Under the pieces are notes generated by a model. It saw nothing but the letters and a program-made list of their open reading frames with translations. It did not search any database and was not told the DNA's origin. 62,493 nt of DNA. Source: a virus. Its lineage: Duplodnaviria > Caudoviricetes. The position numbers were made by a program, and so were the translations under genes. Position 1 is the first letter of the stretch; each line of letters opens with the position of its first letter. The stretch covers positions 1 through 62,493 of IMG/VR virus record IMGVR_UViG_3300044617_002031. One strand, 5' to 3'. This document shows positions 4,185 to 48,684 of this stretch, piece by piece.

Positions 4185-6704
4185 ATGTCTGATCTCACTA
4201 TTCCGGCATTGGTTTTAGAATTTCAAATGCGATCGCTCTATGTACAACAGCTTCTCCAAGCAGAAGCCGGAATTAAAGAATATGATGCAAGTTGGCTAAA
4301 GAACACTGGGGAAGTAATGCGGGACGCGACCGGGAAGTTTGCTAAGAAGGGAGCAACCGTTGATACCCCACAACCGCAGGCGGGAGTTATGCCCGGAACG
4401 ATGCAGATGCCAGGTTTAGGTCAGGCGCAACAAATGACCTGGACGGCAATGGATATGTTGGAAAATGGTTCTGAGATTACTGGTGATTTAATTCAAGGAT
4501 TAGTTCAAGATCCTGGTTTCCGACAACGGGCGGGACTTGTTGCGGGATTGGCGGGGGCAAAGGCATTAGAGAAAATTTTAGAGAAAAGCAAAATTGATCC
4601 TCGGCTTGAAGCTAAATTAAATGATTTTATTGCGGAAGCGACTCAAAAATTAGCGGATGAATATGGGGACGATAAAGACCCGTTTGCTCAAGCTATTCGG
4701 ACTGCGGGAACAGATGAGCCACCGCAGGGAGTTCCCTTTCAACAACGGATGGAGTATGACCTCGCTAAATACCAGGCTTATACTGAAGCGTTAAAAAATC
4801 CCAAGAAATATGACAAGAAGAAGGAATTGATGGGGAAAGCGGTTAAAGCATCAATCCCCGTTGTGGCTTATTTGGGATTAACATTGGGGCCAGAGGTCAT
4901 AATTGGTTTGGTTATGAAGGAATCGCTTGAGGCTATTTTAGTCTCGGCTGCGGTCGGGCAGGCGGTTTCCTTTGGCGCGAACAAGGCAATGGATAAAGCC
5001 AATATTGAAAATCAATGGGTTCGCGCAGGGGTTGATCTGGCTGTGGGGATTGCTGCGGGTGGTTTGTTGGCTTCTAACAAGCATTTCAAGGTTCTGAGTA
5101 AAGCTGATCAAGCATCTCGGACGGGTAAAAAAGTTGCGGAAACCGCGATTAAGGCTACTGAGCAAGGGACTTTTTACGACAAACTTTCTAAACCCGTTAA
5201 AGAGTTCATGGATGCCCGTTCTAAGGATATTCTGGATTCTGTTAAACCGTTACAGGATATCAAACCCACTGGAATTAAACTTCCAGAGATGAAGGATATA
5301 GGATGGATTTCTAAGGGTAAATTCTTTCCAGATAGTGTGCTGTCTATTCCTAAAGAATTGCGATCGCTTCCCCCGAATTTCAGCAAGAATTTATTACTTA
5401 AAGGAACCGATTGGAATAACTTAAAAAGCGCATCTCCTAATTTTATTGATAACATCTTATTTGACGGGGCGGAAATCCTTCAATCCATCAGCAAAGGAAA
5501 AAATCAAGTCATGTCAGCCGTAGTTGACGGTGTTAAACGGAACATTCTAGTCGCCAAGGGTAAGGCTTCTAGGGGAATTAATGCTGCGGGTGAAGCAATT
5601 GAAGATGCTTTTTTGTGGTTGTTACCGAAAGGGATGGATGCTTTGGATGCGTCAGCTACTTGGGTTGATGATGTGGCTAGAAGAATGGATGATATTTATG
5701 AAAATAAAATAAAAACTTTTCGACCCAAGGTTGAACAGGATATTGATAATTTACAACGATCTATATCCGATGGGATTGAGAATCTTAAAATTGATGTCAG
5801 CATGAAAGTTGGCGAGATTGGTCAATCTTTTAATGATGGTTTGGATAGTGCTAAAAAAGCAGGGCAAAAATGGGTTGACGATACAGTTGAAACTCTTGAG
5901 AAGAAAACACAGGTAAACAAGCAATTTGTAAAAGAAGCTGAAGAAAAGGCAGAAAAACGTATTGAGGATATGTTCGATTCGTTAGAAGATTTGTACAAAA
6001 ACAAAATCCAAACTATTAAACCCCGTATCAAGCAAGAGATGGATGACTTAGCAGAACATCTTTCTCAAGAAATTGATAAGTTGAAAATGCCTGATTTGAC
6101 TGCTAAGTTTAAGGGTAAAAAGGCGATCGCGGATCAATGGGCTAAGGATGTTTCCGAGTCTATGGAAACTTTCTATAATAATGAAATTAACAACCTCAAG
6201 TCGAATATCAAGAAGCAAGTCGAGGATTTACAAAAAATTGCTTCCGAGGGAGTTGGTAGTGCAAAAACCAAGGTGCAAGATTACCAAAAGGTTACTAAAC
6301 AATGGTCTGATGATGCTTCTAAAGCTCTTAAAGAGTTATATGAAAATGAAGTTAAGAATTTTCAACCCAATCTTCAAAAAGAAATGGCGGAGTTGAAGTC
6401 TTTGGTGTCTAAACAGGTTGGGAAATTAAAAAAATCAACTTCTTTGACTGCCGAGAATGTCGGTAAATGGGTTGACGATGTTTCGGGTACTCTCAAGAAG
6501 TTGTATAAAGAAAAATCTGCATCCTTAATGCAAGAAGTTAATACAAAAGCCGAGAAATTTAAAAAGGATTTCTCTGACAAATTGAACAAATTCAATACTG
6601 AATTAAATCAAAAAATCGAATCGGTAAAAGATTTAAGTTCACAAGCTCAAGATAAGATATTGTCTGAGTTCGTAAATACCTATATCAATTCGCTTATATT
6701 CTAG
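4185..6704 (+). CDS. Modular virion cargo family member 1; C-terminal apolipoprotein-like amphipathic helical repeats
   Basis: Leader ...QQLLQAEAGIKEYDASWL...RDATGKFAKKG; core EYGDD..AQAIR plus hydrophobic helices; repeats of WVDDV...LYENxIK. Confidence 0.8.
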   Translation: MSDLTIPALVLEFQMRSLYVQQLLQAEAGIKEYDASWLKNTGEVMRDATGKFAKKGATVDTPQPQAGVMPGTMQMPGLGQAQQMTWTAMDMLENGSEITGDLIQGLVQDPGFRQRAGLVAGLAGAKALEKILEKSKIDPRLEAKLNDFIAEATQKLADEYGDDKDPFAQAIRTAGTDEPPQGVPFQQRMEYDLAKYQAYTEALKNPKKYDKKKELMGKAVKASIPVVAYLGLTLGPEVIIGLVMKESLEAILVSAAVGQAVSFGANKAMDKANIENQWVRAGVDLAVGIAAGGLLASNKHFKVLSKADQASRTGKKVAETAIKATEQGTFYDKLSKPVKEFMDARSKDILDSVKPLQDIKPTGIKLPEMKDIGWISKGKFFPDSVLSIPKELRSLPPNFSKNLLLKGTDWNNLKSASPNFIDNILFDGAEILQSISKGKNQVMSAVVDGVKRNILVAKGKASRGINAAGEAIEDAFLWLLPKGMDALDASATWVDDVARRMDDIYENKIKTFRPKVEQDIDNLQRSISDGIENLKIDVSMKVGEIGQSFNDGLDSAKKAGQKWVDDTVETLEKKTQVNKQFVKEAEEKAEKRIEDMFDSLEDLYKNKIQTIKPRIKQEMDDLAEHLSQEIDKLKMPDLTAKFKGKKAIADQWAKDVSESMETFYNNEINNLKSNIKKQVEDLQKIASEGVGSAKTKVQDYQKVTKQWSDDASKALKELYENEVKNFQPNLQKEMAELKSLVSKQVGKLKKSTSLTAENVGKWVDDVSGTLKKLYKEKSASLMQEVNTKAEKFKKDFSDKLNKFNTELNQKIESVKDLSSQAQDKILSEFVNTYINSLIF

Positions 6705-6733
6705 TTTGAACTAACTTTTTGCATTATGATTTT

Positions 6734-9184
6734 CTATTTTCTCTTGATCTTGCTCTCTGCGTTCTTTATAGCAAGATCAAGATTATACTCCTTGATCGCC
6801 AAACTCTTTTTAAGTTTATTTTTCGTATAGGTCGCAAAACTCAAAGAAGATTCTTCTCCTTGATCGGATATGATATCTTCTATTTTTTTAAGATAATCCT
6901 TTATTGATTGTATTTCTTGTTTGTGATTGTCAATATTCTGTTTTCCCAATACTGAGTCTAAATCAACCTCTTTAATATTGTTTTTTAATAATACTTGAAT
7001 ATCTAATCCGAGATATCTTTCTCTGTATATATTCGCCAAAAAAGTATCTATACCTTCTTCATAATTCTTTCTTAGTTTTAAAAATAAAGATAACACTTCT
7101 TTGTCGGATTCTTGGTTTTTCATTAGTTCGTATTCCATTTCGTTTAAACCTATTTTTACCTGCTCTCTTTTTTTGTAAATATCAACAGATTCTCCGTCCA
7201 TTTTTTTAACTATTTCAATGTAATCATCGGAATTGATTTTCCTTTGTTTTTTAAAGAAATTCAATCCAACTTCTTTTAAGTCATCAAACGCTAGGTTGAA
7301 TTTTTTATAGATATATCCTGTACTCATTTCTTCTGTGATTTTTGTAAATTCATTGTATAATTTAAGATCTTTTGTTTCTACATTTTGATCACCCAATATT
7401 CTTGCTAACATCTTTTTTAAAAATGGATCTTCAAAATATTCCATGTGATCTGTAACAGTGTTTAAATACAAATTATTTCTTGGTCTAAGGAAGTTTAGGT
7501 AAACATCATTTTCGGAAAGTATATTCGTAAAATCTTGGGCGGATGTCATTCCAGCAAAAGGACTCGCAATGGTTATATTATTTTTTGTTTTCACTCCCAT
7601 TATTTTTAATATTTCACTGGCTTCTCTTGCTATTAATCCTCCGCCACAATACCCCATTAATGTCACTTCTTTTTCTGGATATTTTTTCTTTAAAGCAGCA
7701 ACTTGAACGGCAAGCGAAATAGCATCCTCGTTATGGAAGTTCTTCATGGTTGCTTTAAAATATTCCCTTCCGGCTTTACCTAGTGCTATCAATTCTGTAT
7801 CTTCTTTGGTTAAATCAGGTGCGAAAATTTTTCTATCGACAAAAGGAAAGAATACCGTCTTTTCAATTTCTTGGTCTTTGCTTCTATTTAATGTTAAAGC
7901 AATTAACTTGGACTGAGCTTTGTCTGTGTCTCCTGCCCCGCCAAGTGTAAATACAATATGATTGGATTCATCTAAATCTCTTAATACGTTGTTTTTTTTC
8001 AACTCTATTTTTTCAATTGCTTTACCACTAACAATATTTTCTCTCACATAATTATCAAAATTCGCAATAAAATCATCAACCCGTGATTCAGCTATTTTCG
8101 CAGATCTGTGAAATCCCAGTCTATAAATACCCCGAACATCCAAAGCTCCCGAAGTTGCTGCGGTTCCCACCAATAAATCAACTCCAATTCTTGCAATTGG
8201 ATTATCAACTTCCGCTTTATCCATTACCTTATTTGCTGCAAAACTCCAGAATTGTCCTACCGCAGCATTGGTTAAAATAATTGCTAAATTATCACCCATA
8301 AACATCCCTATCCCAATTTCCGGTGCTAAAGTTGCCCCCAAAAACATAGCAATGGGAATCGTCATTGCCGCAGCTTTTCCCATCACCTGAACGAACGGAG
8401 GTTTGTCGGGCATATTATTCAGGTCATCTAACATTTTGTTATAATCGTACCCAACTTTATTAAATGCCCGAAGCAAATCCTTCCCTAATTCCTTGGGATC
8501 TCCCCCTCGCAAATTCATTAAATCTTCAGCCAGTTCCTTGTAAGGGTCTGGCTTAATTGCGTTAGGTAGTTCGGGGTGAAGTTCTTCCCACATATCGGCA
8601 AGCCTATCCCTAGCTTCTTGAGCATCAACCCCAAACATCAAATCAAGAAGTTTGTCGGTAAATTCGGGATTTGTTTCAACCAATTTATCCAATCCTTTAG
8701 AAGCCAATTCAACTAATTCACTAGAAACCTCAAGTTTCTTCTCGGCAATATCAGTTTTAACGTCCTCAACCTTTTGCTCAACCGCTTTTTGAACATTTTC
8801 CTTAACCTGTTCAGGATTCTGTGCTTGCTCCCTAATCGCCAATAACTTATTGACAATTTCCCGCTTCAAATCCTGAGCTTCCTGATCAACATTCTGGGTT
8901 ACATTTTGAACCTGTTGTTGAATTTGCTGCGGTTGAGGAATAGAAACTTGAGGAACTTGTAATTGTGGCATTTGCATCCCTGGCTGTACAGGAACAGGCT
9001 GTTGCGGAACATCTACCGTTGTCCCTTTCTTGGCAAACTTCCCGGTCGCGTCCCGCATCACCTGTTTGGCTTCCGGCAACCAATCCGCCTCGTATTCCTT
9101 AATTCCGGCTTCTGCTGCAATTCGGACTCGCAGTAATTGAGCTTGGGCTTGTAATAATTCGCATAATCTAGCTGTGTCTGACAT
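6734..9184 (-). CDS. Cargo family member 2; alpha/beta hydrolase (lipase-like) domain
   Basis: Family leader; VFTLGGAG, VTLMGYCGGG nucleophile elbow, ITIASPF, SEND, TDHMEY. Confidence 0.75.
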   Translation of the reverse strand: MSDTARLCELLQAQAQLLRVRIAAEAGIKEYEADWLPEAKQVMRDATGKFAKKGTTVDVPQQPVPVQPGMQMPQLQVPQVSIPQPQQIQQQVQNVTQNVDQEAQDLKREIVNKLLAIREQAQNPEQVKENVQKAVEQKVEDVKTDIAEKKLEVSSELVELASKGLDKLVETNPEFTDKLLDLMFGVDAQEARDRLADMWEELHPELPNAIKPDPYKELAEDLMNLRGGDPKELGKDLLRAFNKVGYDYNKMLDDLNNMPDKPPFVQVMGKAAAMTIPIAMFLGATLAPEIGIGMFMGDNLAIILTNAAVGQFWSFAANKVMDKAEVDNPIARIGVDLLVGTAATSGALDVRGIYRLGFHRSAKIAESRVDDFIANFDNYVRENIVSGKAIEKIELKKNNVLRDLDESNHIVFTLGGAGDTDKAQSKLIALTLNRSKDQEIEKTVFFPFVDRKIFAPDLTKEDTELIALGKAGREYFKATMKNFHNEDAISLAVQVAALKKKYPEKEVTLMGYCGGGLIAREASEILKIMGVKTKNNITIASPFAGMTSAQDFTNILSENDVYLNFLRPRNNLYLNTVTDHMEYFEDPFLKKMLARILGDQNVETKDLKLYNEFTKITEEMSTGYIYKKFNLAFDDLKEVGLNFFKKQRKINSDDYIEIVKKMDGESVDIYKKREQVKIGLNEMEYELMKNQESDKEVLSLFLKLRKNYEEGIDTFLANIYRERYLGLDIQVLLKNNIKEVDLDSVLGKQNIDNHKQEIQSIKDYLKKIEDIISDQGEESSLSFATYTKNKLKKSLAIKEYNLDLAIKNAESKIKRK

Positions 9185-9217
9185 TGATTTTAATCCTTGT
9201 TTTGGAAATACAAATTA

Positions 9218-10972
9218 TTATTTATGATTTTTCTTTTTCAAATCTTCCTTCATTTGTTTTTCTGTTTGTTTGAGTGACTTTAGAATTTCTTCTTGTTCTT
9301 TTTTCTCCTGAATTTCAAATTCTTTTTTGCGTATTCTGGATTTTTGAATGTTATCGGGCGTTACATCGTCAACATATTTAATCGTTTTAGAATCAATATC
9401 CAAATGATATCTATTCATTAACATTGCGGCTTCACGATAGGATTCTTCTATACCGTCAAAAATTTCCCCCCATCCTTTGCTGTAAAAATCAGAGAGACTT
9501 TGACTAACCTCGTCAAATATTTTATCTCTCTCACTGGTTATCTGTGACAATTCTTTTTTTTCTAAATCCTTTAAGTAATTCAACCCTTTTTTTCTTGACT
9601 TCATTTTCCCTAGTCTTTCTATAGACTCTTTTTTTGCCACCTCTCGTAAGCTAGTGTCCACATCATCCATACTTTTCTTGAATTTTTTAAACTGATCGCC
9701 ATGAGTTAGATTTTGTATGTGTTTTTCTTTTGCCTCTAGTTTTTTGTAAACTGAATTAATTTTTTCCACTACAGGATTAAATTCGGTTTTAGGATCACGT
9801 TCTATAGCTCTAATTACATTACGAAGTTCTTCTTTTGCTAAGGAAATGTGAGATATAGCCATCTGTCCAGTACCTTCGGTCAACTTATAATACAGAAGAC
9901 TCATTTTATTGGTATCAGAGGCAGCTTCAAATGTTTGCCCTATAACTGTTGATATCGACATAGGGCCTAACTTCTCTTGTTCTTTTAATACATCAGGATT
10001 AACGAAACGTAACCATCCATCTTTTACTTCTTCGACACTTACAGAAGCAAGATCCTTGGCTTTTTTAGCTCGAACAGTCTTGAATCCCATTACAGCCGTT
10101 CCGCCCGTTAAAGCACCAACAGCAAGCCCAATTCCCAGTCTAGCAACAGGATTATCAACTTCTAATTTATCCATTGCTTTATCCGCAGCAAATACCCCCG
10201 CTTCACCCGCAGCAAAGGCAATCAATGATTCCGTCAAAGAAAAAGCCGCACCTGCAAAAATCGCTTCTGGAATAATCGTAATACCGAGTCCTATAGCAAT
10301 TGGAACGGATGCAGCAATAACCTTCTGAGCAAGTGACTCAACTGACGCAGGTTCTTCTTTTTCATAAACTTCGGGACTACCTAAAGCATCTTCATAAGCC
10401 TTGTATTTAGCAACCTGTAGCTCCAAACGTTGTTGCAAATTATCACCAGGGGGAAGATTACCGTGCTTACGAATAGCCTGAGCCATTGCACCCCCGTCAT
10501 CCCCATATTCCTTAATTAAATCCTGATTAAATTTATTAATGTAGCTATCTAGTTTCTTAGTAAATTCAGGATTAACCTTTGCGGCTTCAGCTAATCGTTT
10601 AATTGCTTGCGCTCCGGTTTGACCCACTTCTAATCCCGCCCGTCTACGGAAATCCTTGTCTGTCAGCAATTTCTTCAGCATCTCAACAGAAACTTCACCC
10701 CCTTCCAATAACAGGGAAGTGACTTTTTTTGTATCTGAAATTGCTTGACCTACTTTTTCCTGCACCGTTGGGGGTTGCCCTGGTGTTGAGGTTTCTGATG
10801 TTGCTGATGAAGTCCCTTTCTTGGCAAACTTCCCACTTCCATCCCGAACTACGGTATCGGTATTCTTTAGCCAATCCGCCTTATATTCTTTCGTCCCTTC
10901 TGCTGCAATTCGGATTCGCAACAGTTGAGCATGGGCTTGTAGCAATTCACATAATCTAGCTGTGTCTGACAT
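9218..10972 (-). CDS. Cargo family member 3; helical/coiled-coil C-terminus
   Basis: Family leader and core; first ~175 aa nearly identical to member 5. Confidence 0.8.
   Translation of the reverse strand: MSDTARLCELLQAHAQLLRIRIAAEGTKEYKADWLKNTDTVVRDGSGKFAKKGTSSATSETSTPGQPPTVQEKVGQAISDTKKVTSLLLEGGEVSVEMLKKLLTDKDFRRRAGLEVGQTGAQAIKRLAEAAKVNPEFTKKLDSYINKFNQDLIKEYGDDGGAMAQAIRKHGNLPPGDNLQQRLELQVAKYKAYEDALGSPEVYEKEEPASVESLAQKVIAASVPIAIGLGITIIPEAIFAGAAFSLTESLIAFAAGEAGVFAADKAMDKLEVDNPVARLGIGLAVGALTGGTAVMGFKTVRAKKAKDLASVSVEEVKDGWLRFVNPDVLKEQEKLGPMSISTVIGQTFEAASDTNKMSLLYYKLTEGTGQMAISHISLAKEELRNVIRAIERDPKTEFNPVVEKINSVYKKLEAKEKHIQNLTHGDQFKKFKKSMDDVDTSLREVAKKESIERLGKMKSRKKGLNYLKDLEKKELSQITSERDKIFDEVSQSLSDFYSKGWGEIFDGIEESYREAAMLMNRYHLDIDSKTIKYVDDVTPDNIQKSRIRKKEFEIQEKKEQEEILKSLKQTEKQMKEDLKKKNHK
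10445..10972. repeat. ~530-bp direct repeat shared with 14376-14903
   Basis: Near-identical DNA at constant offset 3931. Confidence 0.95.
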
Positions 10973-10976
10973 TTGT

Positions 10977-13304
10977 TTAAACCTTTGTTTTGGAAATAAA
11001 ATTTAACTTGCTTTGTTCAGTCGAGATTCGCTGAACATTACCCTCCTCCTTAACCATCTTCTCCTCAGATTGGGAGAGGATTTTTTTATAGTTATTGGGT
11101 AACTCGACCTCAGACCGAAACACCATAACTTTACTAACAAAATCAAATTGGTTTTCTGCCCCGATCGCACTCCTAATCTTCGGCATCAACCATCCCAACT
11201 TATCCCTCAATTGAGGATACTTAACTTGATAAGGTTTAGGCGCAACATCAATCACCGTCCCAAAAGCCCGATTCTGAACACAGGTTTTACCCCGATTCAA
11301 AATAATAATTGTATTGTCTTGGGGAACCGCGATCGCATCATAACCCAACAAACTAGCCAACCGACCCGGATCTTCCAACACTAACTTAATATCTTTAGGA
11401 ATATCTTTTTCCTTAAAGTGCTTCATCAACGACTCATGGTAAGTCGTCAACTTCTCAAGAGTAATATTTTTAGCATCCTGAGCTAAACTCATTCGCATCA
11501 CACAAGACCCTAAAAACACTCGGTCTACCGCTAAAAAGATGCTTCTCTCTTTGTAGTAATTGATAGATGCTCCCGCCGATGCAGCAACTTCCGGTTTCCC
11601 TTTCCCTACTACCCCATAACAACCATTCCCAAATATTCCAGCATCCGTAATAAAGAAGCCATTTTTATATTGTTCAAACAATTCAATTCCCGTATATTCG
11701 GTTTGACTCCGTTTTCTGGGATTGAACCAATTCTTAAACCCTTTTAATATTTCAGTTTCCTTAGACTTTATCCTTTGATCTAATTCTTCCTGAGAAACAA
11801 TCGTTGGCAACTCATTGAGTCCCATGATCCGATTCATGGCATCCTGCAAGTAATCACTCTGCTTGAAAAACTTAGAGTCAACGTTTTCATCTTCCTTGGA
11901 TAGAAGTTGGGAAAATTCGTTAATCTCTTTGCTGAATTTTAATAATTTATTCTGGTCTAACTTTTCAAAGAAAGGAACAATTTTATCTTTTTCTGGATTA
12001 AAGGACTTAAATTGATCTAATAAATCTTTGTATTTTTTAGCGACATCCTTAGCAAACAAATTCAGGGTTTCATTTAATCCGAATACCTGTGACTTGTATT
12101 CATCAATTTTCTCGTAAATCTCCAATTCCAAATCACTCAAAAATTCCTCGAACTGCTTAACTTGCTTCTCCTGACGGGATACCTGTTGGTTAACCCGCTC
12201 CCGCATCTTTTGGTTAGCTTGAGCGATCGCAATTCTTTTCTCTGTCTCCTCAGATTCCTTCTGATCCTGTTCAGTAATAATCCGTTGAGCTTCCTTTTTT
12301 AAGTCCTCATGGGATTGTTTGGCTACCTTTTTGGCATTGGCGGGAACAGGAATGGGGGCTTCTACCTGAGTGAGACTGGAAATATCATTACGAATTTGAC
12401 CAAATAAGGAAGGGTCTAACCCTAGTATTTTCCCCATCTTTTGATCGGACAAAGTTTTATCTTTATCGGTAAAATCCTTACTCAATTTGACATTGCCAAC
12501 ATGGGCAACAATTCCCCCCGCCAGAAATCCCACCACTAATTTAGAAGCATCCCGTACTGTTGGGTCTGATACCTGCACTACTTCACTGGACTCATGTTCG
12601 AGGGTATCAACTGCTTCCGCAATTACAGACGAGTCCACAATCCCATCCCACCGAACCCCCTTTTCATAAATCAAGGGAATTAGGGTTTCGGGGGGAAGTG
12701 CGATCGCTAATCCAACACCAACAGGAACAGCAGAAGCCATTGTTTGACCAAGTAGCCGTTGCTTGTTTTCATAAAATTCAGATTGTTGAATTGCTTGGCA
12801 ATAGGCGTAATAACGTGCGATCGCAAATTCAAGTTTTTGGTCTAACGGTGCGGTAGTAGGTAATACGACAACTCCCTTACGAATAGCTTGAGCAATAGGA
12901 TTAGTAGTATCCCCGTATTGGTCAGACAATTCCTTAGTTTCTATATCCAACCAATCATCAAACGCTTGAGTTAGCTCAGGGTTATCGCCTACCGACAACA
13001 TAACCCGTTTGATTAATTTCGCCATCGGTTGATTTTCTTCTAATTTGCAGCGATCGCAGAACATCGGGTCAGCAACCAATTTCCGCAACGATTCAGTAGT
13101 AATTTCTTCCCCTTGTTGAATCAGGGTATCGAAATCGTTAACCTGTTGCATCTGGGCTTGTTGCTGTTGTTGTATCTGCGCTTGCTGCGGGTCAACAGGT
13201 GGCATTCCTGGTTGTGGGGGTGCGGGGGGTGGTGGCATCATCGCGTTCGCCAGTATTAACAGGTGCGATTGGAATTTAGCGATTAATAGGAGTTGTTCGT
13301 TCAT
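10977..13304 (-). CDS. Cargo family member 4 (divergent leader); C-terminal ADP-ribosyltransferase-like domain
   Basis: Core QYGDTTNPIAQAIRK...KLEF...ASAVPVG; C-terminal LPTIVS, GIFGNGCY, DPGRLASLLGYDAI, IIILNR, as recalled from phage-head-associated ART-like domains. Confidence 0.65.
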   Translation of the reverse strand: MNEQLLLIAKFQSHLLILANAMMPPPPAPPQPGMPPVDPQQAQIQQQQQAQMQQVNDFDTLIQQGEEITTESLRKLVADPMFCDRCKLEENQPMAKLIKRVMLSVGDNPELTQAFDDWLDIETKELSDQYGDTTNPIAQAIRKGVVVLPTTAPLDQKLEFAIARYYAYCQAIQQSEFYENKQRLLGQTMASAVPVGVGLAIALPPETLIPLIYEKGVRWDGIVDSSVIAEAVDTLEHESSEVVQVSDPTVRDASKLVVGFLAGGIVAHVGNVKLSKDFTDKDKTLSDQKMGKILGLDPSLFGQIRNDISSLTQVEAPIPVPANAKKVAKQSHEDLKKEAQRIITEQDQKESEETEKRIAIAQANQKMRERVNQQVSRQEKQVKQFEEFLSDLELEIYEKIDEYKSQVFGLNETLNLFAKDVAKKYKDLLDQFKSFNPEKDKIVPFFEKLDQNKLLKFSKEINEFSQLLSKEDENVDSKFFKQSDYLQDAMNRIMGLNELPTIVSQEELDQRIKSKETEILKGFKNWFNPRKRSQTEYTGIELFEQYKNGFFITDAGIFGNGCYGVVGKGKPEVAASAGASINYYKERSIFLAVDRVFLGSCVMRMSLAQDAKNITLEKLTTYHESLMKHFKEKDIPKDIKLVLEDPGRLASLLGYDAIAVPQDNTIIILNRGKTCVQNRAFGTVIDVAPKPYQVKYPQLRDKLGWLMPKIRSAIGAENQFDFVSKVMVFRSEVELPNNYKKILSQSEEKMVKEEGNVQRISTEQSKLNFISKTKV

Positions 13305-13307
13305 AAT

Positions 13308-14903: not shown

Positions 14904-14905
14904 TT

Positions 14906-15784: not shown

Positions 15785-15823
15785 ATTAAAATTACTAACG
15801 CCAGGTTTCCCTGGCATTAGATT

Positions 15824-16288: not shown

Positions 16289-16297
16289 TTTTTTAAC

Positions 16298-40650: not shown

Positions 40651-40736
40651 GGATTTTTAAGTAATCAAAAAAACCCCGAAAAATTCGAGGTTTTGACAAT
40701 ATATAGGTGTACAAATCTAACCTCTACACTAACACA

Positions 40737-41318: not shown

Positions 41319-41331
41319 GTCAATAACCCAC

Positions 41332-44322
41332 CTAAGTTGTTACAGAAGAACCAAACCGAGAAACCAAAGATTCGGGGCCAATTTCTAATTCAAGCCTTTC
41401 TAAGATTCCAGTTGGGAACCAGGAATAAAAAAGCTTCAATTTTCCATTGACGATTTGAAGAAATACATCAACTCCCTCTTGGCCCACAGAAGGGACTGTG
41501 GCAAATCTTACAGCTTGATCAAATGTCAAATATCGACTGTAGACTCCTTTTTGGTATTCTTCCTTAGCAAATCCCTCTAACGCCAGCAATAACCGATCCG
41601 ACAACTCAGGTTGATTGGGTCGGAATAATTGTTGCAATAAAGGTTGGGCTTCCAAAAAAATTCTGACGTAGTTACTCTGCGTTCTTCGGACATGAAGAAA
41701 GGTATAAATTGAATTTAGAGCAGGGCAACGACTACCAAAAATAATCACTCGCCCACTAAAATATTTAATCGGTTGAATCCCTGCTAAATTCAAAATTCCT
41801 TCTTCCCTGGGATTGGGAGTGAAAGGTAATTTAGAAATTCGCCCTAATGTCGCGCTCAAACCAGCGGCAACATAATGATATCCCCGATATTGAGAAGCCA
41901 TGGCACTTTCCAATCCCATGATGTCTCCAGATATGGAGATCATGCGATCGCCTCTGGAACGAGGGTTGGGAATAAAGGCGTAGCTAGGGAAGGCAACGGA
42001 AAGGTGATCACTGCGCCCTAAATCTAAATTGATATAGGATTCAGCAACGGCGACATTATTAATCAAGGCAGGAATTTCAGCCCGGAACTCGAATGCAACG
42101 GATTCAGCATAAGCAATCCCCGCTTTCTGCACGGATAAATCATTAACGCCAGGAATTGCGAAGCGAACCAAGCCCACGTTCAACCCATAAACAGCTTGCT
42201 CAAGGAAATTGAGGTCTAAGTCAAGGTATCGCGTGAAGTTATAGGGCTGCATCATCGAGGAGTCGCCGTCGTATCCTCCTTCAAAATACTGAGGGAAAGA
42301 AACGATAAAGCGATCGCCTTGACTGGCATAACGAGTTAAATCAATCCCCGAATCAAAAGAAAGATAACCTGATTTGGTGAGCTTACTTCCAGCAGTTAGA
42401 TTGATAGAGAATCCTTGAGTCAAGGACAGTTCAGCATCACTGATGACCTGACGAACAGTTCGGATTTCACCAGCAGGAGAAACAACCAAATCCCCAGCAG
42501 CAACAACAGAACGAAAAGCAGTCCCCGATCCTGTTACAACAGACCCCGTGGTAGAAACGGTTCCCGCTAGAATAACAGGGGATTTAGCTTGCTTAACTCG
42601 GAAGGCGTTTCTGGCATAGCGATAGGGATTGGGATAGATGTAATTCCCAACACTGGCTTGATAATCAAAATCCCCAACGGTATAAATACGTTGTTGGGTT
42701 AAGGATAAAATAGTCCCACTGCCATTAGTAGGTCGGACATCATTTGACATCGCGGTTGTGTAGCTTGCCGTACTCCCATTCCACAATGATTTAGCTCGAA
42801 CCCAAGACAAGTAATTCTCGGTTCCCGTTCGGTAGGCAACATTGGTATTGTTAACCAGGGTTTCAACAAATAAAGAATCGCTGGGATCTAAAGAAGCATC
42901 TGCAATAGATACGACGAGAGAGTTATTGAACCGGATTTGTAGACTAAAATGGGTTTCGGGATAGGCCGTACCCTGCCCAATTTCTACACTTAACCCAGTC
43001 TTGTCGGGAGGAATCAGGGAAATTTTAGCTACTTGGCTTTGTTTGGCTAGTTCAGCATCAGCGAAACCACCATAAAAAGGTTTGGCAATTTTAAATTGAT
43101 CTGCCTGAACTTCGGTAACAATTGCCCCATCTCCACGACGATTGGGGTCAATAATTTTTTCCCCTGGCAAAAGTTCATCTAACAAATCACCGTCAACAAC
43201 ATCTACCCAGTAATTGTCTAAGTAAGCAACCGTTCCAACACTGATATCGGACTCAAACCCAGACTCCAGTAACAAGGAAGTGTCACTAACCACACTAGCT
43301 ACTGTTCGGACAACTTCGATTCCATTTACCAAACAGTAAAGTTTGTCACCTGGAGCAACTTCCACTAGGAAGGTAGTATTATTTCCAGCAACTTCTAAAT
43401 TATCTTTTTCCAGAATTGTTGCTGTAACACTATCAATGATAAATGGTGATTCAATCGTTAGAGATGTATTAGAAGTAATTGAGGTAACTCGCCGAGATTC
43501 ACCCGCGTAGTAGACTGGATCTCCAATTTTCAGTTCACTAGAAAATTGAGTTCCAACCCCAACAATTATAGTCCCGTTGATTGTTACAGTTCCCAATAAG
43601 GAAATCAATCTTTGGAATCCAATTGTCCCCGCCAGGTTTTTATGACGAGAATAAGTTGCCAATCCAGACAGGGTTAATGGCCCAGACACACCATCTGCGA
43701 ATAGATCGTATTGGGAACCAATCGTAAAAACAACTTCTCCGCTTATCGGGTTTGAAGCGGTGTTAGCGATCACCTGATAAGTTTTATTGCTTCCCGAAAA
43801 TTCGATATTTGCATCGACTAATTCGTTGGCAAAAATACCTGGTGCAACAATCGTAAAAGTTTTCGCTGTCGCAACAACAACAGTCGAAAAAGGCACGATT
43901 TTACGATACCCACCCCATCGACCTTGGTTCGCGGCTTCCAACTCTAAAATTTCCGTCCCTAACCGATTTTTGACAACGATTTTAGCAGGACGAGCATTTT
44001 CTAGCTCAACCCGCGTAATCCATGTCATAGCACCGCTTCCAGCACTATTAAAAAATCCATCAATTGCATCAGGACAAAGATGACTGGCATCAGGATATAA
44101 ATGCCACGATGAATCTTTTGGATCTCCCGCAATTTGTAAATACTGCTCTTTAGAAAGATAGGGAATTGCGACCCCCATAGGGCCACGCTTCTGAACTCCA
44201 AAAAAAGCTGTTGTGCCGTATCTCGAATCAATTACGATTTGATTCCCTGAACGTTCGATAACAGCCAGGCCTGCCGCACCAGCAGGAGGGCCAAATACAC
44301 GCACAGATTGTAAATCTGCCAT
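41332..44322 (-). CDS. Contractile tail sheath protein with inserted beta domains
   Basis: TAFFG...RGP, A.N.G.WG, FEGGYDG, AFP, LN..GI.PI, IFG.R, LHVRR, FRPN. Confidence 0.9.
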   Translation of the reverse strand: MADLQSVRVFGPPAGAAGLAVIERSGNQIVIDSRYGTTAFFGVQKRGPMGVAIPYLSKEQYLQIAGDPKDSSWHLYPDASHLCPDAIDGFFNSAGSGAMTWITRVELENARPAKIVVKNRLGTEILELEAANQGRWGGYRKIVPFSTVVVATAKTFTIVAPGIFANELVDANIEFSGSNKTYQVIANTASNPISGEVVFTIGSQYDLFADGVSGPLTLSGLATYSRHKNLAGTIGFQRLISLLGTVTINGTIIVGVGTQFSSELKIGDPVYYAGESRRVTSITSNTSLTIESPFIIDSVTATILEKDNLEVAGNNTTFLVEVAPGDKLYCLVNGIEVVRTVASVVSDTSLLLESGFESDISVGTVAYLDNYWVDVVDGDLLDELLPGEKIIDPNRRGDGAIVTEVQADQFKIAKPFYGGFADAELAKQSQVAKISLIPPDKTGLSVEIGQGTAYPETHFSLQIRFNNSLVVSIADASLDPSDSLFVETLVNNTNVAYRTGTENYLSWVRAKSLWNGSTASYTTAMSNDVRPTNGSGTILSLTQQRIYTVGDFDYQASVGNYIYPNPYRYARNAFRVKQAKSPVILAGTVSTTGSVVTGSGTAFRSVVAAGDLVVSPAGEIRTVRQVISDAELSLTQGFSINLTAGSKLTKSGYLSFDSGIDLTRYASQGDRFIVSFPQYFEGGYDGDSSMMQPYNFTRYLDLDLNFLEQAVYGLNVGLVRFAIPGVNDLSVQKAGIAYAESVAFEFRAEIPALINNVAVAESYINLDLGRSDHLSVAFPSYAFIPNPRSRGDRMISISGDIMGLESAMASQYRGYHYVAAGLSATLGRISKLPFTPNPREEGILNLAGIQPIKYFSGRVIIFGSRCPALNSIYTFLHVRRTQSNYVRIFLEAQPLLQQLFRPNQPELSDRLLLALEGFAKEEYQKGVYSRYLTFDQAVRFATVPSVGQEGVDVFLQIVNGKLKLFYSWFPTGILERLELEIGPESLVSRFGSSVTT

Positions 44323-44337
44323 TGATATCTCCTAAGT

Positions 44338-44378
44338 AAAAAAACGGGTTCCCCGAAATAAAGGAAACCCGTTTTAGG
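44338..44378 (-). terminator. Hairpin starting CCTAAAACGGG upstream of the sheath gene
   Basis: aaaacgggtt.cc...gg.aacccgtttt. Confidence 0.7.
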
Positions 44379-44405
44379 TTTGAATTAAATTAATGGAATT
44401 AAGAT

Positions 44406-44813
44406 TTATGCGGAATGAAGTCGTGGCACTCCAGTCCCAAAATATCCCCGTTCTCGAATCAACAAAACACGCTGTTGAATTGAGGGTCTACCTCCCTTTG
44501 TCGGAATTTTAGCTGTTGAAAACAAGTAGTTTTCCGACTCAATTTTGTCCAGTTGTTCGTGGGTACATTTCAAGAGTGGATCATCGGAGTCAATTATTAC
44601 ACATCCGGTCAGAACCAAGGATTGATCGTAGTTCAATCCTTTGACATACTCCTGAATTAATTTAACCTCATCATCGCTCAAAAAACGAGGCTCGGTCGAA
44701 ATAAAAATAGAAGTATCATCGGGATTGTTCGATGACTTAATCCCCAGAAAATCATGGGGGTAGGGAACCTGTAAAGGCTCTCTCGCATTTTTGAGTTGAG
44801 CTTGTCTAAGCAT
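44406..44813 (-). CDS. Hypothetical protein
   Basis: 135 aa; overlaps the upstream stop. Confidence 0.65.
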   Translation of the reverse strand: MLRQAQLKNAREPLQVPYPHDFLGIKSSNNPDDTSIFISTEPRFLSDDEVKLIQEYVKGLNYDQSLVLTGCVIIDSDDPLLKCTHEQLDKIESENYLFSTAKIPTKGGRPSIQQRVLLIRERGYFGTGVPRLHSA

Positions 44814-45135
44814 AGGATAGGGTGACTAGATTTTCGGGAGTCATGAATTTAGCAGTTGCCGCAGCATAAACCCATAATCCGGGTGCTTTCAAAGCCAAAA
44901 AGGGTTCTTGCTGGGTTTGATATAACAATTTACAAAATTGACGATGCTGTTCTTCTGCACCACTAATAAAGAATAGGTAATGACCTGTGGTATAGCCGTC
45001 AATCGGGGCTGTAGCATTGATCGCATGGTTATCCACACGATGAATCAACGTAACCGCCAAGTCAACCCCAATTTGCAGAAAGTTATCTTTGTGATCCTGG
45101 GACAAGGTGATCTGGACTGGTGCTACTGCTGGCAT
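44806..45135 (-). CDS. Hypothetical protein, paralog family B (1 of 2)
   Basis: IDGY..GH..FFI.G...H..F.K.L...GL..YA..T.KF..PEN.VT shared with the next gene. Confidence 0.8.
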   Translation of the reverse strand: MPAVAPVQITLSQDHKDNFLQIGVDLAVTLIHRVDNHAINATAPIDGYTTGHYLFFISGAEEQHRQFCKLLYQTQQEPFLALKAPGLWVYAAATAKFMTPENLVTLSYA

Positions 45136-45234
45136 AGCTGGTTATCTCCCATCAATAATAATGTTTTCAAATTCTGAACTGGTGCTACTGCTGGCATAGC
45201 TGGTTATCTCCTATCAATAATAATGTTTTCAAAT
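45116..45234. repeat. 57-bp direct repeat (period 62) duplicating RBS and start of 44806-45135
   Basis: 45116-45172 vs 45178-45234, one mismatch. Confidence 0.9.
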
Positions 45235-45579
45235 GTAGTCTATCGGTGCTGAAGCCAATATCGCTTCAATGGTGACTTTGTTTTCAGGCTTCACGAATTT
45301 TCCGGTTGGACTCGCGTAAATCGTTAACCCCCTGAATCGAGAGGGAATAACTGCGCTATAGCCGTCACCAAACAAATATTTCAGAAAGATCAGATGTTCG
45401 CTCATAGTTCCTTCGATAAAGAAAACGAAGTGACCATTACTATATCCATCAATCCGACAAGCTGTATGGTGTAGTGTGTCCCCGGAAATCCTGTAAACAT
45501 CGTCAGAACGAATACCTTGTTCTGACAATACTTCTAACTGCTTCTCATTTAGTCGCAAACGACTATCAATGCTGGGCAT
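45229..45579 (-). CDS. Hypothetical protein, paralog family B (2 of 2)
   Basis: Start MPSIDS with AGGGG RBS; paralog of 44806-45135. Confidence 0.8.
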   Translation of the reverse strand: MPSIDSRLRLNEKQLEVLSEQGIRSDDVYRISGDTLHHTACRIDGYSNGHFVFFIEGTMSEHLIFLKYLFGDGYSAVIPSRFRGLTIYASPTGKFVKPENKVTIEAILASAPIDYI

Positions 45580-45681
45580 TTGGTTGTCCCCTAGACGCAA
45601 AAAACGGAGCAGAGAATAAATCTCCGCCCCGTTTTAGGATTTCTTTTTGTTATGCTCTATTGTACACGATATTAAAGTCAA

Positions 45682-46302
45682 ATGTCATACATCACCCCCG
45701 AAGCTGTTCAAAAACGATTAATCTCTCTAGGCGATCGCACTCCCGAAACAGTCCCATCATTCGACGCGATCCAAATTATGATTGATGATATCGAATATCG
45801 GATCGATACCTGGCTGGGTTATTCGCCGTTACCTAGAGAGTACCTCAGTACGATCATTCCGAACCATATAGGATATTTGAATATCAATAGCCAAGCCCCT
45901 CCTATAAAGGTTTTGGAGGTTAAACGGATTCATCCTGTATTTGGGGGAACGATTTTAACCAATGCCTACTGGACTTGGGATGGTAAGCGCACCATTGAGG
46001 TAATTTATGTAATGGGAATAAGTTCATCGGGATTAAACTACGAAGTCCGTTACATCGCGGGATTGAAAGAAATCCCCCCTATTTTTGAGAATGTCGCATT
46101 TCACCTATTACGTTATTCTGTTAAGAATGATTGCGATACTTTCTCTTTGGAAGAACCGACACGGGATTTAACCAGTGTAAATTTACCGGGAGGCATGAGT
46201 CAGCAATTTAAACTAGGGGAAAATAAAAATGCTTCACTGGGAACTTGGTTTGAGCGTTTTGTTCAGCCATTGAGTCGTTATAAACACAGGATTAAGGTTT
46301 AG
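45682..46302 (+). CDS. Head-tail adaptor (gp6/gp15-like)
   Basis: MSYIT.E.V, IDTWLG, V.Y.AG...IP, ...L..Y. Confidence 0.75.
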   Translation: MSYITPEAVQKRLISLGDRTPETVPSFDAIQIMIDDIEYRIDTWLGYSPLPREYLSTIIPNHIGYLNINSQAPPIKVLEVKRIHPVFGGTILTNAYWTWDGKRTIEVIYVMGISSSGLNYEVRYIAGLKEIPPIFENVAFHLLRYSVKNDCDTFSLEEPTRDLTSVNLPGGMSQQFKLGENKNASLGTWFERFVQPLSRYKHRIKV

Positions 46303-46362
46303 AATTAAACCAACTCGAACCAGAGGCATAAATTTATGTCTCTGGTTTTTATGCAAAAATCT

Positions 46363-48684
46363 ATGCAAAATAATACCGAACTGTTGTGTTTGATTTTGGA
46401 ATTTCAGTCTCGAAGCTTGATTGTACAAGGATTGTTACAAGCGGAAGCTGCTAAAGAGTACAAGGCGGATTGGCTAAAAAATGCTGATACCGTTGTCAGG
46501 GACAGGGGTGGGAAGTTCGCTAAAAAAGGAATGTCCATCGCTCAACCAATTCAAGATGCAACTGCTATTTTAAAGCAAGGGTTTGATCTAACGGGTGATA
46601 CGATTCAATCTCTAGTCAAAGATCCTGAGTTCAGAAAGAGGGCGGGACTTGCTGCGGGTTTGCCTATGGCGAAACTGATTTCTAATTTGGCAACCCAAGC
46701 CAGATTGAATCCTAAATTAACCGAGAAATTGGATGAATGGATTGCCAATGCCACCAAAGAATTTGCCGATCAATATGGCGATGATAAAAACCCGATGGCA
46801 CAGGCAATTCGTAACAATAAGTTAGCACAACCCCCCAAAGATGCTAGTTTCAACGAAAAGATGGAATTTAGGGTTGCTCAATATACTGCATATCAGGAGG
46901 CATTAAAAAATCCCGAAGATTTCAGTAAGCGCGATGAAATTATAGGGAAAGCCGCTGCTGCTGCGATTCCTATTGGTGTCAGTTTGGCAATTGCATTAGG
47001 GTTTGAAGTTGCTATTCCCCTGTTTTTAGCGCAAAGTGTGAACTGGGCCACTGTATTAAGTTCTGTTGCACTTGGGGAAGCTGCTGATTTTGCTGTACAA
47101 AAGGGCATGGATAAATTAGAAATTAATAATCCGGCACTTCGTATTGGAGCCAGTATGGTTGCTGGGATTTTAGCGGGGGGACTGGTTACAGGTGTTAATA
47201 ATAAAATCAAGAATATTGAACGACTGGAAGTTGAGCGATTAGCAAATGAAGAAGCTAAACGGTTGGCCGATGAAGAAGCCGAGCGATTAACTAAAGAGAG
47301 GGTGGAGAAACTAGCTAAAGAGAAAATTGAACATGAATCCAAAAAAGAATATGAGAGATTGATCAAAGAAGAATCCGATCGAATAGAAAAAGAGTATGAA
47401 GAATTGTTCAAGAAAAAAGTACCTACTCCAAAAAGCACTCAAGAATTACTTGAGGATAAAGCCGAGCGATTAGCTAAATTACAAAAACCATCATTATCGG
47501 TTCAAAAGGTATTGAATGATATGGGTTTAGATTTTCCAGAAATCTTAAAGGCTATTCACAACATTAATCACTCTCAAGATGCACGGAATACTTTACTTGT
47601 AGATATAGAAAAAACTCTTGAAAACATACATCAATTACAAAAAGATATAGAATCATTAGATATTTCCGCAGACATTCACAACATACAAAAAGAAAGGTAC
47701 AGAGAATTAATGAAGAATAAAGAGAAATTGTTAGAAAAAAAAGCGCAACTAAGAATTGCAGAAGGAAAAGGGTACTCTCCAGAGAAAAGATTACTCGAAG
47801 CGTCTGAAATCATGGAAAAAGAGGGGATAGATTCACCGCGATACCTGTGGCGTAAAGCTGTGTTACAAGCAGAAGTGAAATATGGTAAGTATTTGGACGA
47901 AATTCAAAATGGAGTAGAAAATGGGTACGCTAAATTAATGAAATCCTTAAAAAAAGATCATAACTATAATGCTGAATGTATTTTTGTTGAAAACGATCCC
48001 GGTACACAAAATATCATGGCTCTTGAATTATCTATAGATGTAAAAAACAGTATTAATGATATAGTGAGTGATTTTCAGGATATAGTTAGTATTCCATTGA
48101 AAATCCATATTGGATCGCGTGATCTTGGTATATATGCGATACAGGGTAAAAGAGCTACGTCAAACATCACCAATCATTATTTTGATAATATAAATATATT
48201 AAAAGATTTTCCTTTTTTAGAAGAAGAAAGTAATGGTTTTGTTCATGTAGGTGGTGTTTTTCGTCGCAATCCTAATGAAGTGTATTATAGTAGTGGTTAC
48301 AATGTCCTCTGCGATCCAGATACCCAGATCAAAGAATCGTTATGGCATGAGATGGGGCATCTTGTTGAGGCAAGTATTTTAAAATCCCAAAAAACAGCGC
48401 AATCTTTTTTGAAAGATAGAGAATCAGAATCTTGGTTAATTGGTGATATAGATGAACTAGAAGAATCTACTTTTTTTAGTGGTAACATCATAAAAGCAAT
48501 TGATCATTTCTTTGATGGTTACATGGGGACTCAGTATATGGATAATGGAAGTAATACAGTATTATTGACGGAGTTGATATCTAGTGGTTTTGAAGGTTTA
48601 TCTTCTCCTTGGATGGCAAAATCTATGACGATTCGAGATAGAGAAAGTTTATTATATGCAATAGCCGTATCGGAGATGAAATAA
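46363..48684 (+). CDS. Cargo family member 8; C-terminal zincin-like metallopeptidase
   Basis: MQNNTELL leader as in member 7; LWHEMGHLVE; downstream Y.G..Y...TELISSGFE supplies a candidate third ligand. Confidence 0.8.
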   Translation: MQNNTELLCLILEFQSRSLIVQGLLQAEAAKEYKADWLKNADTVVRDRGGKFAKKGMSIAQPIQDATAILKQGFDLTGDTIQSLVKDPEFRKRAGLAAGLPMAKLISNLATQARLNPKLTEKLDEWIANATKEFADQYGDDKNPMAQAIRNNKLAQPPKDASFNEKMEFRVAQYTAYQEALKNPEDFSKRDEIIGKAAAAAIPIGVSLAIALGFEVAIPLFLAQSVNWATVLSSVALGEAADFAVQKGMDKLEINNPALRIGASMVAGILAGGLVTGVNNKIKNIERLEVERLANEEAKRLADEEAERLTKERVEKLAKEKIEHESKKEYERLIKEESDRIEKEYEELFKKKVPTPKSTQELLEDKAERLAKLQKPSLSVQKVLNDMGLDFPEILKAIHNINHSQDARNTLLVDIEKTLENIHQLQKDIESLDISADIHNIQKERYRELMKNKEKLLEKKAQLRIAEGKGYSPEKRLLEASEIMEKEGIDSPRYLWRKAVLQAEVKYGKYLDEIQNGVENGYAKLMKSLKKDHNYNAECIFVENDPGTQNIMALELSIDVKNSINDIVSDFQDIVSIPLKIHIGSRDLGIYAIQGKRATSNITNHYFDNINILKDFPFLEEESNGFVHVGGVFRRNPNEVYYSSGYNVLCDPDTQIKESLWHEMGHLVEASILKSQKTAQSFLKDRESESWLIGDIDELEESTFFSGNIIKAIDHFFDGYMGTQYMDNGSNTVLLTELISSGFEGLSSPWMAKSMTIRDRESLLYAIAVSEMK

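Follow-up and report, generated by a model that had tools for sequence, protein, structure and literature searches.

The 62,493-nucleotide (nt) stretch considered here, IMG/VR record IMGVR_UViG_3300044617_002031 (called the window below, at its full length), is a linear 62.5 kb fragment of an uncultured contractile-tailed phage with a CheckV completeness of 46%, and it carries eight related genes, m1 to m8, which, judged from their sequences, are an undescribed family of modular phage proteins. Comparison of these genes with one another and with those of related phages has shown them to be real mosaics, whose modules have been copied between paralogues in one genome and swapped between phages. 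The original prediction, that modules and payloads are shuffled by homologous recombination or gene conversion in the manner of polymorphic toxin loci, is strongly supported by patches of identity, by synonymous divergence (dS), by tests of the pairwise homoplasy index (PHI) type, by approximately unbiased (AU) tests and by the arrangement of the genes in relatives. Overall, we are fairly confident that the best explanation is a modular mosaic family shuffled by recombination, with a possible particle-delivered function, the likelihood of which is graded separately below.

All eight open reading frames (ORFs) are present as first described, and a search of the record with m7 recovers exactly these eight. 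Their common plan consists of five modules: an amphipathic leader helix of 22-31 residues; a near-invariant beta-hairpin motif, KEY-x-A-x-WL...RD..G(K/R)FA(K/S)K(G/A), with positions that are invariant in 46/46 motif-bearing representatives; a variable linker; a helical core of ~200 residues that ends in two or three hydrophobic Gly/Ala-rich helices; and a C-terminal payload, with no similarity past the core between most members in the alignment. The first gene, m1 (4185-6704, plus strand), has a leader of the L.LEFQ.RSL type, a VMRDATGKF-type motif, the core and a long coiled-coil C-terminus, and is 86% identical to its orthologue in the related contig L005. The array of m6 to m2 lies on the minus strand and comes after the portal gene, a 564-amino-acid (aa) ORF, the capsid protein gene and a 154-aa ORF on the same strand; its members lie 3-33 nt apart and have no small ORFs between them. 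In this array m6 (14906-15817) has a leader and motif, its match to m7 covering residues 2-69 only, followed by a different short hydrophobic region and no core; m5 (13308-14903) has the MSDTARLC leader, a KEYKADWLKN-DTVVRD motif, the core and an m3-like C-terminus; m4 (10977-13304), 94% identical at the aa level to its L005 orthologue, has a leader-like helix, a P/Q-rich linker, the core and an unassigned payload but lacks the KEY motif; m3 (9218-10972), which shares 60% aa identity with its paralogue m5 from end to end, has no counterpart in the syntenic array of L005; and m2 (6734-9184) joins the MSDTARLC leader and a VMRDATGKF-type motif to a very divergent core and a possible alpha/beta-hydrolase payload. 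Directly 3' of the tube gene, m7 (38584-40650, minus strand) has a 7-type leader and motif, the core, a coiled coil and a payload like R-S-ExE ADP-ribosyltransferases (ARTs), and m8 (46336-48684, plus strand) has a 7/8-type leader, a 3/5-like motif, the core, a coiled coil and a WHExxH zinc-peptidase-like payload. The real start of m8 is more likely the ATG at 46363 (MQNNTELL...) than the longest-ORF start at 46336, because the repeat arm described below, m7 and the ORFs of relatives agree on that ATG. The leader and motif types that first suggested reassortment proved exact in the alignment, with MSDTARLCELL leaders in m2, m3 and m5, L.LEFQ.RSL leaders in m1, m7 and m8, VMRDATGKF motifs in m1, m2 and m6, and KEYKADWLKNxDTVVRD motifs in m3, m5 and m8. 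EAGIKEY...KKGxTVDxPQ is likewise common to m1 and m2, where the corresponding repeat (I5) is 64 nt long and 81% identical. Terminator-like GC-rich hairpins with T runs stand directly 5' of the starts of m1 (~4130-4184) and m7 (40651-40700), which suggests either that these two genes open their own transcription units or that they are reached by read-through from the preceding unit.

Within the array, the direct repeat reported for m3 and m5 is real, with 17 mismatches over nt 1-528 of the coding sequence (CDS). These are unevenly spread: nine lie in nt 1-58 and eight in nt 59-528, mismatches become dense from nt 529, and the longest identical run measures 211 nt. The gene-conversion tract in m3 (CDS nt 59-528; 10445-10914, minus strand) has eight mismatches in 470 nt to its m5 partner (14376-14845), and dS between the two genes drops from 0.90 upstream to 0.066 within the tract and climbs to 1.33 beyond it. 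By module, the nt identity of m3 and m5 is 97-99% in the motif, linker and first core segment, and 85% and then 64% in the two core segments that follow. The leader of m2 is itself a patchwork: a 52-nt stretch (CDS nt 25-76; 9109-9160, minus strand) is identical to m5 at 14828-14879 and stops exactly at the leader/motif boundary, and m2 is identical to m3 over CDS nt 1-23 plus ~32 nt upstream. Leader nt identity is 96% for m2-m5, 89% for m2-m3 and 88% for m3-m5, with dS over codons 1-25 of 0.185, 0.425 and 0.527 for the same pairs. The upstream segment aatttxtatttccaaaacaa, said to be duplicated before m2 and m3, is indeed duplicated with a one-base difference, but the exact pattern occurs once only, before m2. 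This non-coding copy 5' of m2 (9185-9217, minus strand; repeat family D7) has its counterpart before m3 at 10973-11005, shorter by one base and forming the 3' coding end of m4.

An alternative is that these are ordinary diverged paralogues, made to look like patchworks by unequal selective constraint and without any recombination. The KEY...KKG motif, invariant as it is in 46/46 representatives, is very strongly constrained, and some of the similarity there may be due to constraint or convergence. However, the dS pattern of m3 and m5, in which synonymous divergence falls ~14- to 20-fold inside the tract, means that protein-level constraint cannot explain the patchwork, and the identical runs of 211 nt and 52 nt have sharp edges. 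In the PHI-type permutation test, permutations at or below the observed incompatibility numbered 0/1000 for six window members, 0/300 for 14 sequences and 0/500 for the 7/8-type set. Trees of the leader, motif and core disagree with one another, and AU tests reject the groups concerned: the leader tree joins m2, m3 and m5 with three L005 genes (L5b, L5c and L5e) at 96/100, a group that the core data reject (p-AU 0.0012), and the group defined by motif type is rejected by both the leader data (8.5e-7) and the core data (4e-8). As will be seen for m7 and m8, paralogues are also closer to each other than to their positional counterparts in the core only. Taken with this incongruence, constraint without recombination is extremely unlikely. 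Some features of the tests do count against the recombination reading, in that the permutation test is our own implementation, the groups put to the AU tests were named after the alignment had been inspected, and the 81-column leader alignment does not reject a grouping of the 450-aa gene of L005 with the 7/8-core set (p-AU 0.129), so that the incongruence of this gene rests on the core data and identity values.

A second exchange within the genome concerns m7 and m8. Their inverted repeat (I1) is real, with arms of 983 nt that are 86% identical and 5696 nt apart; the m7 arm (39676-40658, minus strand) takes in the first 975 nt of the gene and 8 nt before its start, the m8 arm spans 46355-47337 (plus strand), and the longest identical run is 77 nt. 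The claimed switch to different payloads holds for the C-termini, but it is not quite abrupt, as ~130-250 aa of unshared coiled coil or linker precede the catalytic parts. By nt identity m8 is itself composite: it is nearest to m7 in the leader (82%) and core (88-95%), and its motif is 75-76% identical to those of m3 and m5 and 64% to that of m7. The contig L001 (= L002) of a sister phage has the same layout, with an 8-like gene, small ORFs, sheath, tube and a 7-like gene, and thus offers a positional counterpart for each. Over nt 1-180, m7 is 94-97% identical to its L001 counterpart and 61-82% to m8; over nt 271-810, m7 and m8 are 88-98% identical to each other and each is 76-88% identical to its L001 counterpart; and over nt 811-900 m7 and m8 are still 92% identical where the L001 counterparts are unrelated (47-49%). 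The core tree makes m7 and m8 sisters (100/100), the motif tree pairs m7 with its L001 counterpart (100/99), and core dS is 0.405 for m7-m8 vs. 0.87 and 2.45 to the counterparts. Because m7 and m8 are closer in the core than either is to its positional counterpart, the arms have exchanged sequence within this lineage. This pattern indicates gene conversion and concerted evolution of the two cores, with leader and motif following position instead.

The 5.7-kb segment between the arms (40659-46354) holds the tube and sheath genes, four small ORFs and a 206-aa ORF (45682-46302, plus strand), and the original prediction held that the repeat could invert it. Programmed invertible switches are known in the G and C segments of Mu and P1, where a site-specific invertase of the Gin/Cin type acts on short inverted crossover sites and populations contain both orientations, and the m7/m8 repeat could likewise flip the sheath-tube segment and so swap the payload that follows the tube gene. 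The 983-nt arms with identical runs up to 77 nt would suit such a switch, and the gene conversion between them shows that they pair. Nevertheless, we think a programmed switch very unlikely, since arms only 86% identical are ill suited to frequent exchange, neither the 206-aa ORF nor the small ORFs scanned beside the arms matched a recombinase family, and no inversion was found among relatives with informative flanks, L001 (= L002), L009 and L012 all keeping the window's arrangement, as does L010 on one flank. The deletion of m4 through the m3/m5 repeat, which had also been predicted, appears in one of four public runs (X2) as a single contig joint, 10902->14831, that skips 3928 nt with 46 letters on its shorter side, but m4 is well covered in X2 and the joint may be a de Bruijn graph artefact. 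Another X2 joint, 9193->13206, has 26 letters on its shorter side and was disregarded.

Exchange between related phages follows the same boundaries, and the junctions fall where they had been predicted, between leader and motif, after the motif and after the core. At the leader/motif junction the identity of m2 and m5 ends after ...AAE. The second junction, just after ...KFAKKG, is found in the 450-aa gene of L005 and at a loose contig end (14746) in the public run X1, and the database protein P0069 switches ~12 residues further on. At the post-core junction, 37 close relatives among those listed diverge directly after GLVTGVNNK. This set, which was defined by at least ~80% identity to the m7 N-terminal module and includes m7, m8, two L001 genes and some fragments, falls into 10 classes over the 60 residues past GLVTGVNNK and 11 classes over the last 180 residues; the counts come from a stricter payload clustering, a first pass having merged nearly all of the payloads through low-complexity similarity of coiled coils and tetratricopeptide repeats (TPR), and the large TPR class may still be over-merged. 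The two L001 members are 89-94% identical at the aa level to those of the window over ~282 residues and then carry unrelated payloads. The array of L005 has an extra 450-aa member between its m6-like and m5-like genes, with a leader and motif that match the m5-like neighbour up to ...KFAKKG and a core of the 7/8 type. L005 also lacks m3, its m4-like gene reading through the AAATTT...AAACAA segment directly into the m2-like gene, and this difference from the window looks like the trace left when an entire member was inserted or deleted. The position 3' of the tube gene also varies among relatives: L010 has a 7-type leader, motif and core there with an m8-type payload (51% aa identity), then a homologue (4913-5230, 85%) of the 105-aa ORF that follows the m8 payload in the window (48686-49003, plus strand), then a gpI-like gene, and L012 has a different leader, a 2/6-type motif, a 7/8-type core, another payload and a 145-aa ORF, and is without m8 and without the 105-aa ORF. 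No family matched this 105-aa ORF, which may encode a cognate partner of the peptidase payload, acting in immunity or as a chaperone or adaptor and travelling along with it. P0069 has no core, its 7/8-type leader and motif being fused directly to an m8-type payload. The sister phage has at least nine family members across four contigs.

As the window is a metagenome assembly, the repeats and mosaics might be assembly chimeras across paralogues or co-occurring strains. Strain mixtures are evident (793 further variant places and many loose ends), and mis-joins arise easily at repeats longer than the word size, the X2 joint 10902->14831 being a possible case. Against this, every junction is in frame with intact ORFs, like mosaic proteins occur in many independent database clusters, and the arrangement at the m7/m8 site and the array (bar m3 and the 450-aa gene) recur in L001, L005, L009 and L012. 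The public runs bear on this question as well. In all, 20 runs, spread over 12 studies of freshwater, lake, lagoon and algae metagenomes, contain at least 70% of the sampled words of 39000-48000; with near-identical sequence of this region in these runs, the phage lineage is geographically widespread. Contigs of four runs were aligned to 3600-17600 at 90% identity, and 24 of the 81 loose ends were listed. X1 and X4, which belong to different studies, each have contigs that match 9131-10474 without a single mismatch and end at 10474; as this lies 30 nt past the tract-edge mismatch at 10444, it is read as the branch expected from 31-letter words, and both contigs thus stop at the predicted edge of the repeat, although X1 may be the source of the window itself. 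Loose ends also recur at module edges, at 4183 (X1, X2 and X5), where a different gene, MSIALQCYIL as translated by eye, begins at the start codon of m1; at 9247 (all four runs), just within the 3' end of m3; at 13305 (X2), at the start of m4; at 10991 (X4), 5' of m3; and at the X1 position already mentioned, 14746, right after KKG, where an L005-type 7/8 core follows (translated by eye). The same junctions therefore appear in separately assembled relatives and runs, and we regard chimeric assembly as highly improbable, with the reservation that the public-run evidence all comes from assembled contigs, not reads.

The C-terminus of m7 matches the Vis arginine ADP-ribosyltransferase 4xzj_A (phmmer, E 5e-4), and its ...RY..., ...STT... 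and ...ETE... align with the Vis motifs, placing the catalytic R, STT and ExE positions in order, which upholds the predicted ART payload, with Pfam ADPrib_exo_Tox not reached at E<=0.1. In the putative peptidase of m8, WHExxH is invariant in 7/7 aligned relatives, as are several downstream Glu, but matches to zinc-peptidase folds are weak: the payload model is poor (predicted local distance difference test, pLDDT, 60.5), its best matches are PPEP-3 (Z 5.5), PPEP-2 (Z 4.7) and the lethal-factor catalytic domain (Z 4.6), its Atlas leads score 0.90-0.92, and PDB sequence searches with this payload and with the 564-aa ORF gave nothing meaningful. For the m2 payload there are only Pfam hints below cut-off, to DUF676 and Thioesterase. 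A NUDIX assignment of the m4 payload, from NUDIX-labelled Atlas clusters scoring 0.87, was taken as no result. Over 50 diverse members, Pfam recognised Pkinase in three, RIO1 in two, Kdo in two, and ADPrib_exo_Tox, HipA_2, PI3_PI4_kinase, Thioesterase and others in one each, and TPR repeats are frequent among close relatives. A profile of the N-terminal module matched 142 of 1.84 billion cluster representatives at E<=1e-3, nearly always at the N-terminus of proteins of 63-1957 residues, some of which have leader and motif only and some the core only. Its AlphaFold model, built from a 50-sequence alignment, has a mean pLDDT of 74, in which residues 3-28 form a helix, 31-34 and 43-46 a hairpin and 78-211 a confident helical core, the hydrophobic helices being poorly modelled.

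These observations suggest how the family could diversify and act. The conserved N-terminal modules would serve as portable homology arms, and each payload in the array is flanked on one side by its own N-terminal module and on the other by the upstream region and leader of the next member, such that a double crossover or a conversion could replace, insert or delete a payload cassette in frame, with selection retaining recombinants whose junctions lie at module boundaries. The leader-hairpin would be a shared signal for entry into the virion, the hydrophobic core could aid entry into or anchoring in the host envelope, and the payloads may act on the host early in infection, like T4 Alt, with shuffling diversifying the arsenal in an arms race with host defences. 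We consider it roughly an even call that the family members are virion-delivered effectors. This is proposed because the enzyme payloads are like those of delivered effectors, m6 to m2 stand behind head genes, and a charged amphipathic leader is common to otherwise unrelated proteins. The bolder form of the proposal, which we put somewhat lower, is that each particle would be armed with 8-10 or more interchangeable effectors that combine one leader-hairpin loading signal, a membrane-active core and enzymes (ART, kinases, a zinc peptidase, and a hydrolase) re-dealt by conversion and by cassette exchange during co-infection.

Several points weigh against delivery in the virion. T4 internal proteins and Alt have a capsid targeting sequence, a short N-terminal amphipathic peptide with a Glu-specific site for the prohead protease; here a Glu precedes the motif (position -3) in only 19/46 motif-bearing representatives, no protease was recognised in the 564-aa ORF, and the first prediction of a cleavage site at the N-terminal junctions found no support. 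A complex prediction of m7 residues 1-75 with the capsid protein and with residues 230-564 of the 564-aa ORF scored 0.00, which weighs neither way on binding. The N-terminal module has no Pfam (E<=0.1, eight members), PHROG or NCBIfam match, its model gave nothing at E<=1e-3 in Foldseek searches of PDB and BFVD, and the best VIA match, Z 6.3 on helical bundles, is within noise; the NCBIfam scan returned only coiled-coil matches far below cut-off, and scans with P0042 and P0021 returned no matches. The array is also without immunity genes, so the analogy to polymorphic toxins is architectural only. Lastly, m7, a member in the sister contig L004 and those of the distant relative G002 adjoin tail or baseplate genes, not head genes.

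This last point suggests another possibility, that the shuffling is as described but the tail, in its tube lumen or baseplate, houses the proteins, as with the cargo of extracellular contractile injection systems, in which unrelated payloads carry an N-terminal leader and are encoded beside the sheath, tube and baseplate genes. Consistent with this, m7 has the tube gene on one side and a P2-gpI-like baseplate gene on the other, the L004 member is beside a tape-measure gene, m1 has weak tape-measure PHROG matches, and in G002 six apparent members flank a gpI-like gene (three with HExxH payloads by eye and three matching an A2 profile). Yet the lumen would be occupied by the tape measure, at least 2864 aa long, 8-10 paralogues of 303-839 aa would be many for it, m6 to m2 close the head operon, and no homology to known tail components was found, and we therefore rate tail carriage as unlikely. 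The likeness to contractile injection systems is one of architecture, and unlike those systems the window has a portal, a capsid protein and a tape measure, from which it follows that the element is a phage. That the family might itself be the tape measure, given the place of m7 after the tube gene, was ruled out, as this role belongs to the ORF of at least 2864 aa at 53807-62401 (minus strand; gene 53807-62491), which has strong tape-measure matches (phrog_1272, 1.7e-34). The tape-measure gene runs off the end of the window and contains internal repeats (D6 and D8), and its L004 homologue, of at least 3079 aa, adjoins another family member.

The proteins could also stay inside the infected cell, as late-expressed membrane proteins for superinfection exclusion, lysis control or envelope remodelling, and not be virion components. 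Their two or three hydrophobic core helices, the frequency of TPR and coiled-coil payloads in close relatives and the absence of any sign of packaging would fit such a role. However, the leader is charged and amphipathic and not a signal peptide, ART, protein kinase and HipA-like kinase payloads are typical of delivered effectors, and an invariant N-terminal hairpin on unrelated ends suggests a common docking or trafficking step. We hold this intracellular role to be improbable, on a par with carriage in the tail, and delivery from the virion as the better-placed account of function.

Several known systems resemble the family in part. The MuF polymorphic toxins of temperate phages have a conserved N-terminus and variable C-terminal toxins, and their delivery with DNA has been proposed (Jamet et al., 2017; PMC5576092). 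As outlined there, MuF toxins are like the present genes in being phage-encoded, in joining a conserved N-terminus to variable enzymes and in lying in or beside the head-packaging module, and they differ in that here there are at least eight paralogues with a hydrophobic core and no array immunity genes, in a freshwater myovirus-like phage as opposed to Firmicutes prophages. No Pfam family, and thus no MuF domain, was found at E<=0.1 in the eight N-terminal modules, nor was MuF found in m1 or among the ten families listed for the 50 relatives; PF06152 was seen only as a row with a 14% share in the Atlas neighbourhood of the m8 payload. Bacterial polymorphic toxins, such as those of contact-dependent inhibition (CDI), Rhs and type VI and type VII secretion system (T6SS/T7SS) effectors, have a trafficking N-terminus and polymorphic toxin C-termini that recombine at a fixed junction (Zhang et al., 2012; PMC3482391). 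In the terms of that description, the likeness lies in a conserved N-terminus, unrelated C-termini at a fixed junction, diversification by recombination, and C-termini from known toxin or enzyme families (ART, Pkinase, ADPrib_exo_Tox, HipA_2), with several window payloads unassigned; ART and peptidase payloads are common to both. The differences from the toxins so described are that most members have no adjacent immunity gene, only m8 having a small ORF that travels with its payload; that there is no secretion-system gene; that leader, motif and core also reassort; and that orphan payload cassettes were not noticed here, no systematic search having been made.

Giant phages such as SPN3US have ejection proteins (PMC7824862). 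Like these, as far as that source describes them, and like the T4 internal proteins and Alt, the family has an N-terminal amphipathic peptide on unrelated proteins, includes an ART and lies near head genes, but there is no sequence or fold similarity and no prohead protease was recognised; the presumed signal, made up of helix and hairpin, also exceeds theirs in length and leads into a large conserved core. Polyvalent proteins of phages and conjugative elements carry conflict domains, ART among others, whose entry into the host together with the DNA has been proposed (Iyer et al., 2017, PMC5512222; also PMC7824862). Unlike the many domains on one giant polypeptide in that account, there is one payload per paralogue on a common chassis here. 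A literature search on polymorphic toxins of cyanophages and other phages and on injected paralogous effectors found only these analogues, although a description elsewhere is possible. What is new here is the unnamed N-terminal family, the presence of eight members in one fragment and the reassortment of the upstream modules; the architecture and the mode of diversification were already known.

The remainder of the window is in keeping with a contractile-tailed phage. The portal gene (19312-20637; Pfam Phage_portal, 1.6e-20) and the weakly recognised major head protein gene (16477-17556) have between them, in listed order, the 564-aa ORF, in which no family was recognised. The tube gene (40737-41318, minus strand) is next to that of a 996-aa sheath protein (41332-44322, minus strand) whose C-terminus matches a Bacillus phage sheath, and other structural genes encode tail-fibre proteins and the P2-gpI-like baseplate protein. 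The giant tape measure implies what would be an unusually long contractile tail. In the INPHARED phage collection there was no match to m7 or the capsid protein, and the portal and sheath matches were remote only. Various further repeats were seen. A 62-nt tandem duplication (97%) at 45111-45234 takes in the starts of two adjacent small paralogues (44806-45135 and 45229-45600) with an IDGY..GH..FFI.G motif in common, and a 66-nt tandem repeat (two copies, 97%) at 660-791 lies inside a 433-aa ORF at the window start. A 559-aa tail-fibre gene has direct repeats of 158-300 nt, 85-92% identical, within 23450-24663, and nearby fibre genes (22454-23416, 25389-26294 and 26310-27170) share its PHROG families. 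Among the relatives, L002-L005 (contigs of a closely related phage with ~40% G+C) are filed in a metagenome-assembled genome titled Acetobacteraceae bacterium, which is probably a binning artefact and not a host assignment, and IMG/VR labels L001 (= L002) a provirus. By eye, a 598-aa ORF near family members in the distant relative G002 (L007, 14713-16509) resembles reverse transcriptases of the group II intron type, and its C-terminus seems to bear an HNH-like motif.

Phage proteins that are injected, among them T4 Alt, P1 Dar, MuF toxins and polyvalent proteins, have mostly been described as single genes. In the present case one fragment holds eight versions of a shared chassis with different enzymes, and the evolution of the repertoire is visible, through conversion tracts, payload swaps at fixed junctions and the gain or loss of whole members, and this in a phage found in metagenomes of 12 studies whose N-terminal module is nonetheless rare in cluster databases. 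If loading does depend on the leader-hairpin, this would give a compact natural tag for placing arbitrary proteins in a phage particle, and the payloads would amount to a collection of enzymes for taking over the host or countering its defences, drawn from a phage-host system not yet studied. Should particles indeed carry 8-10 or more such effectors, the family would be a viral counterpart of the effector repertoires of T6SS and contractile injection systems, built on a delivery domain without a known fold.

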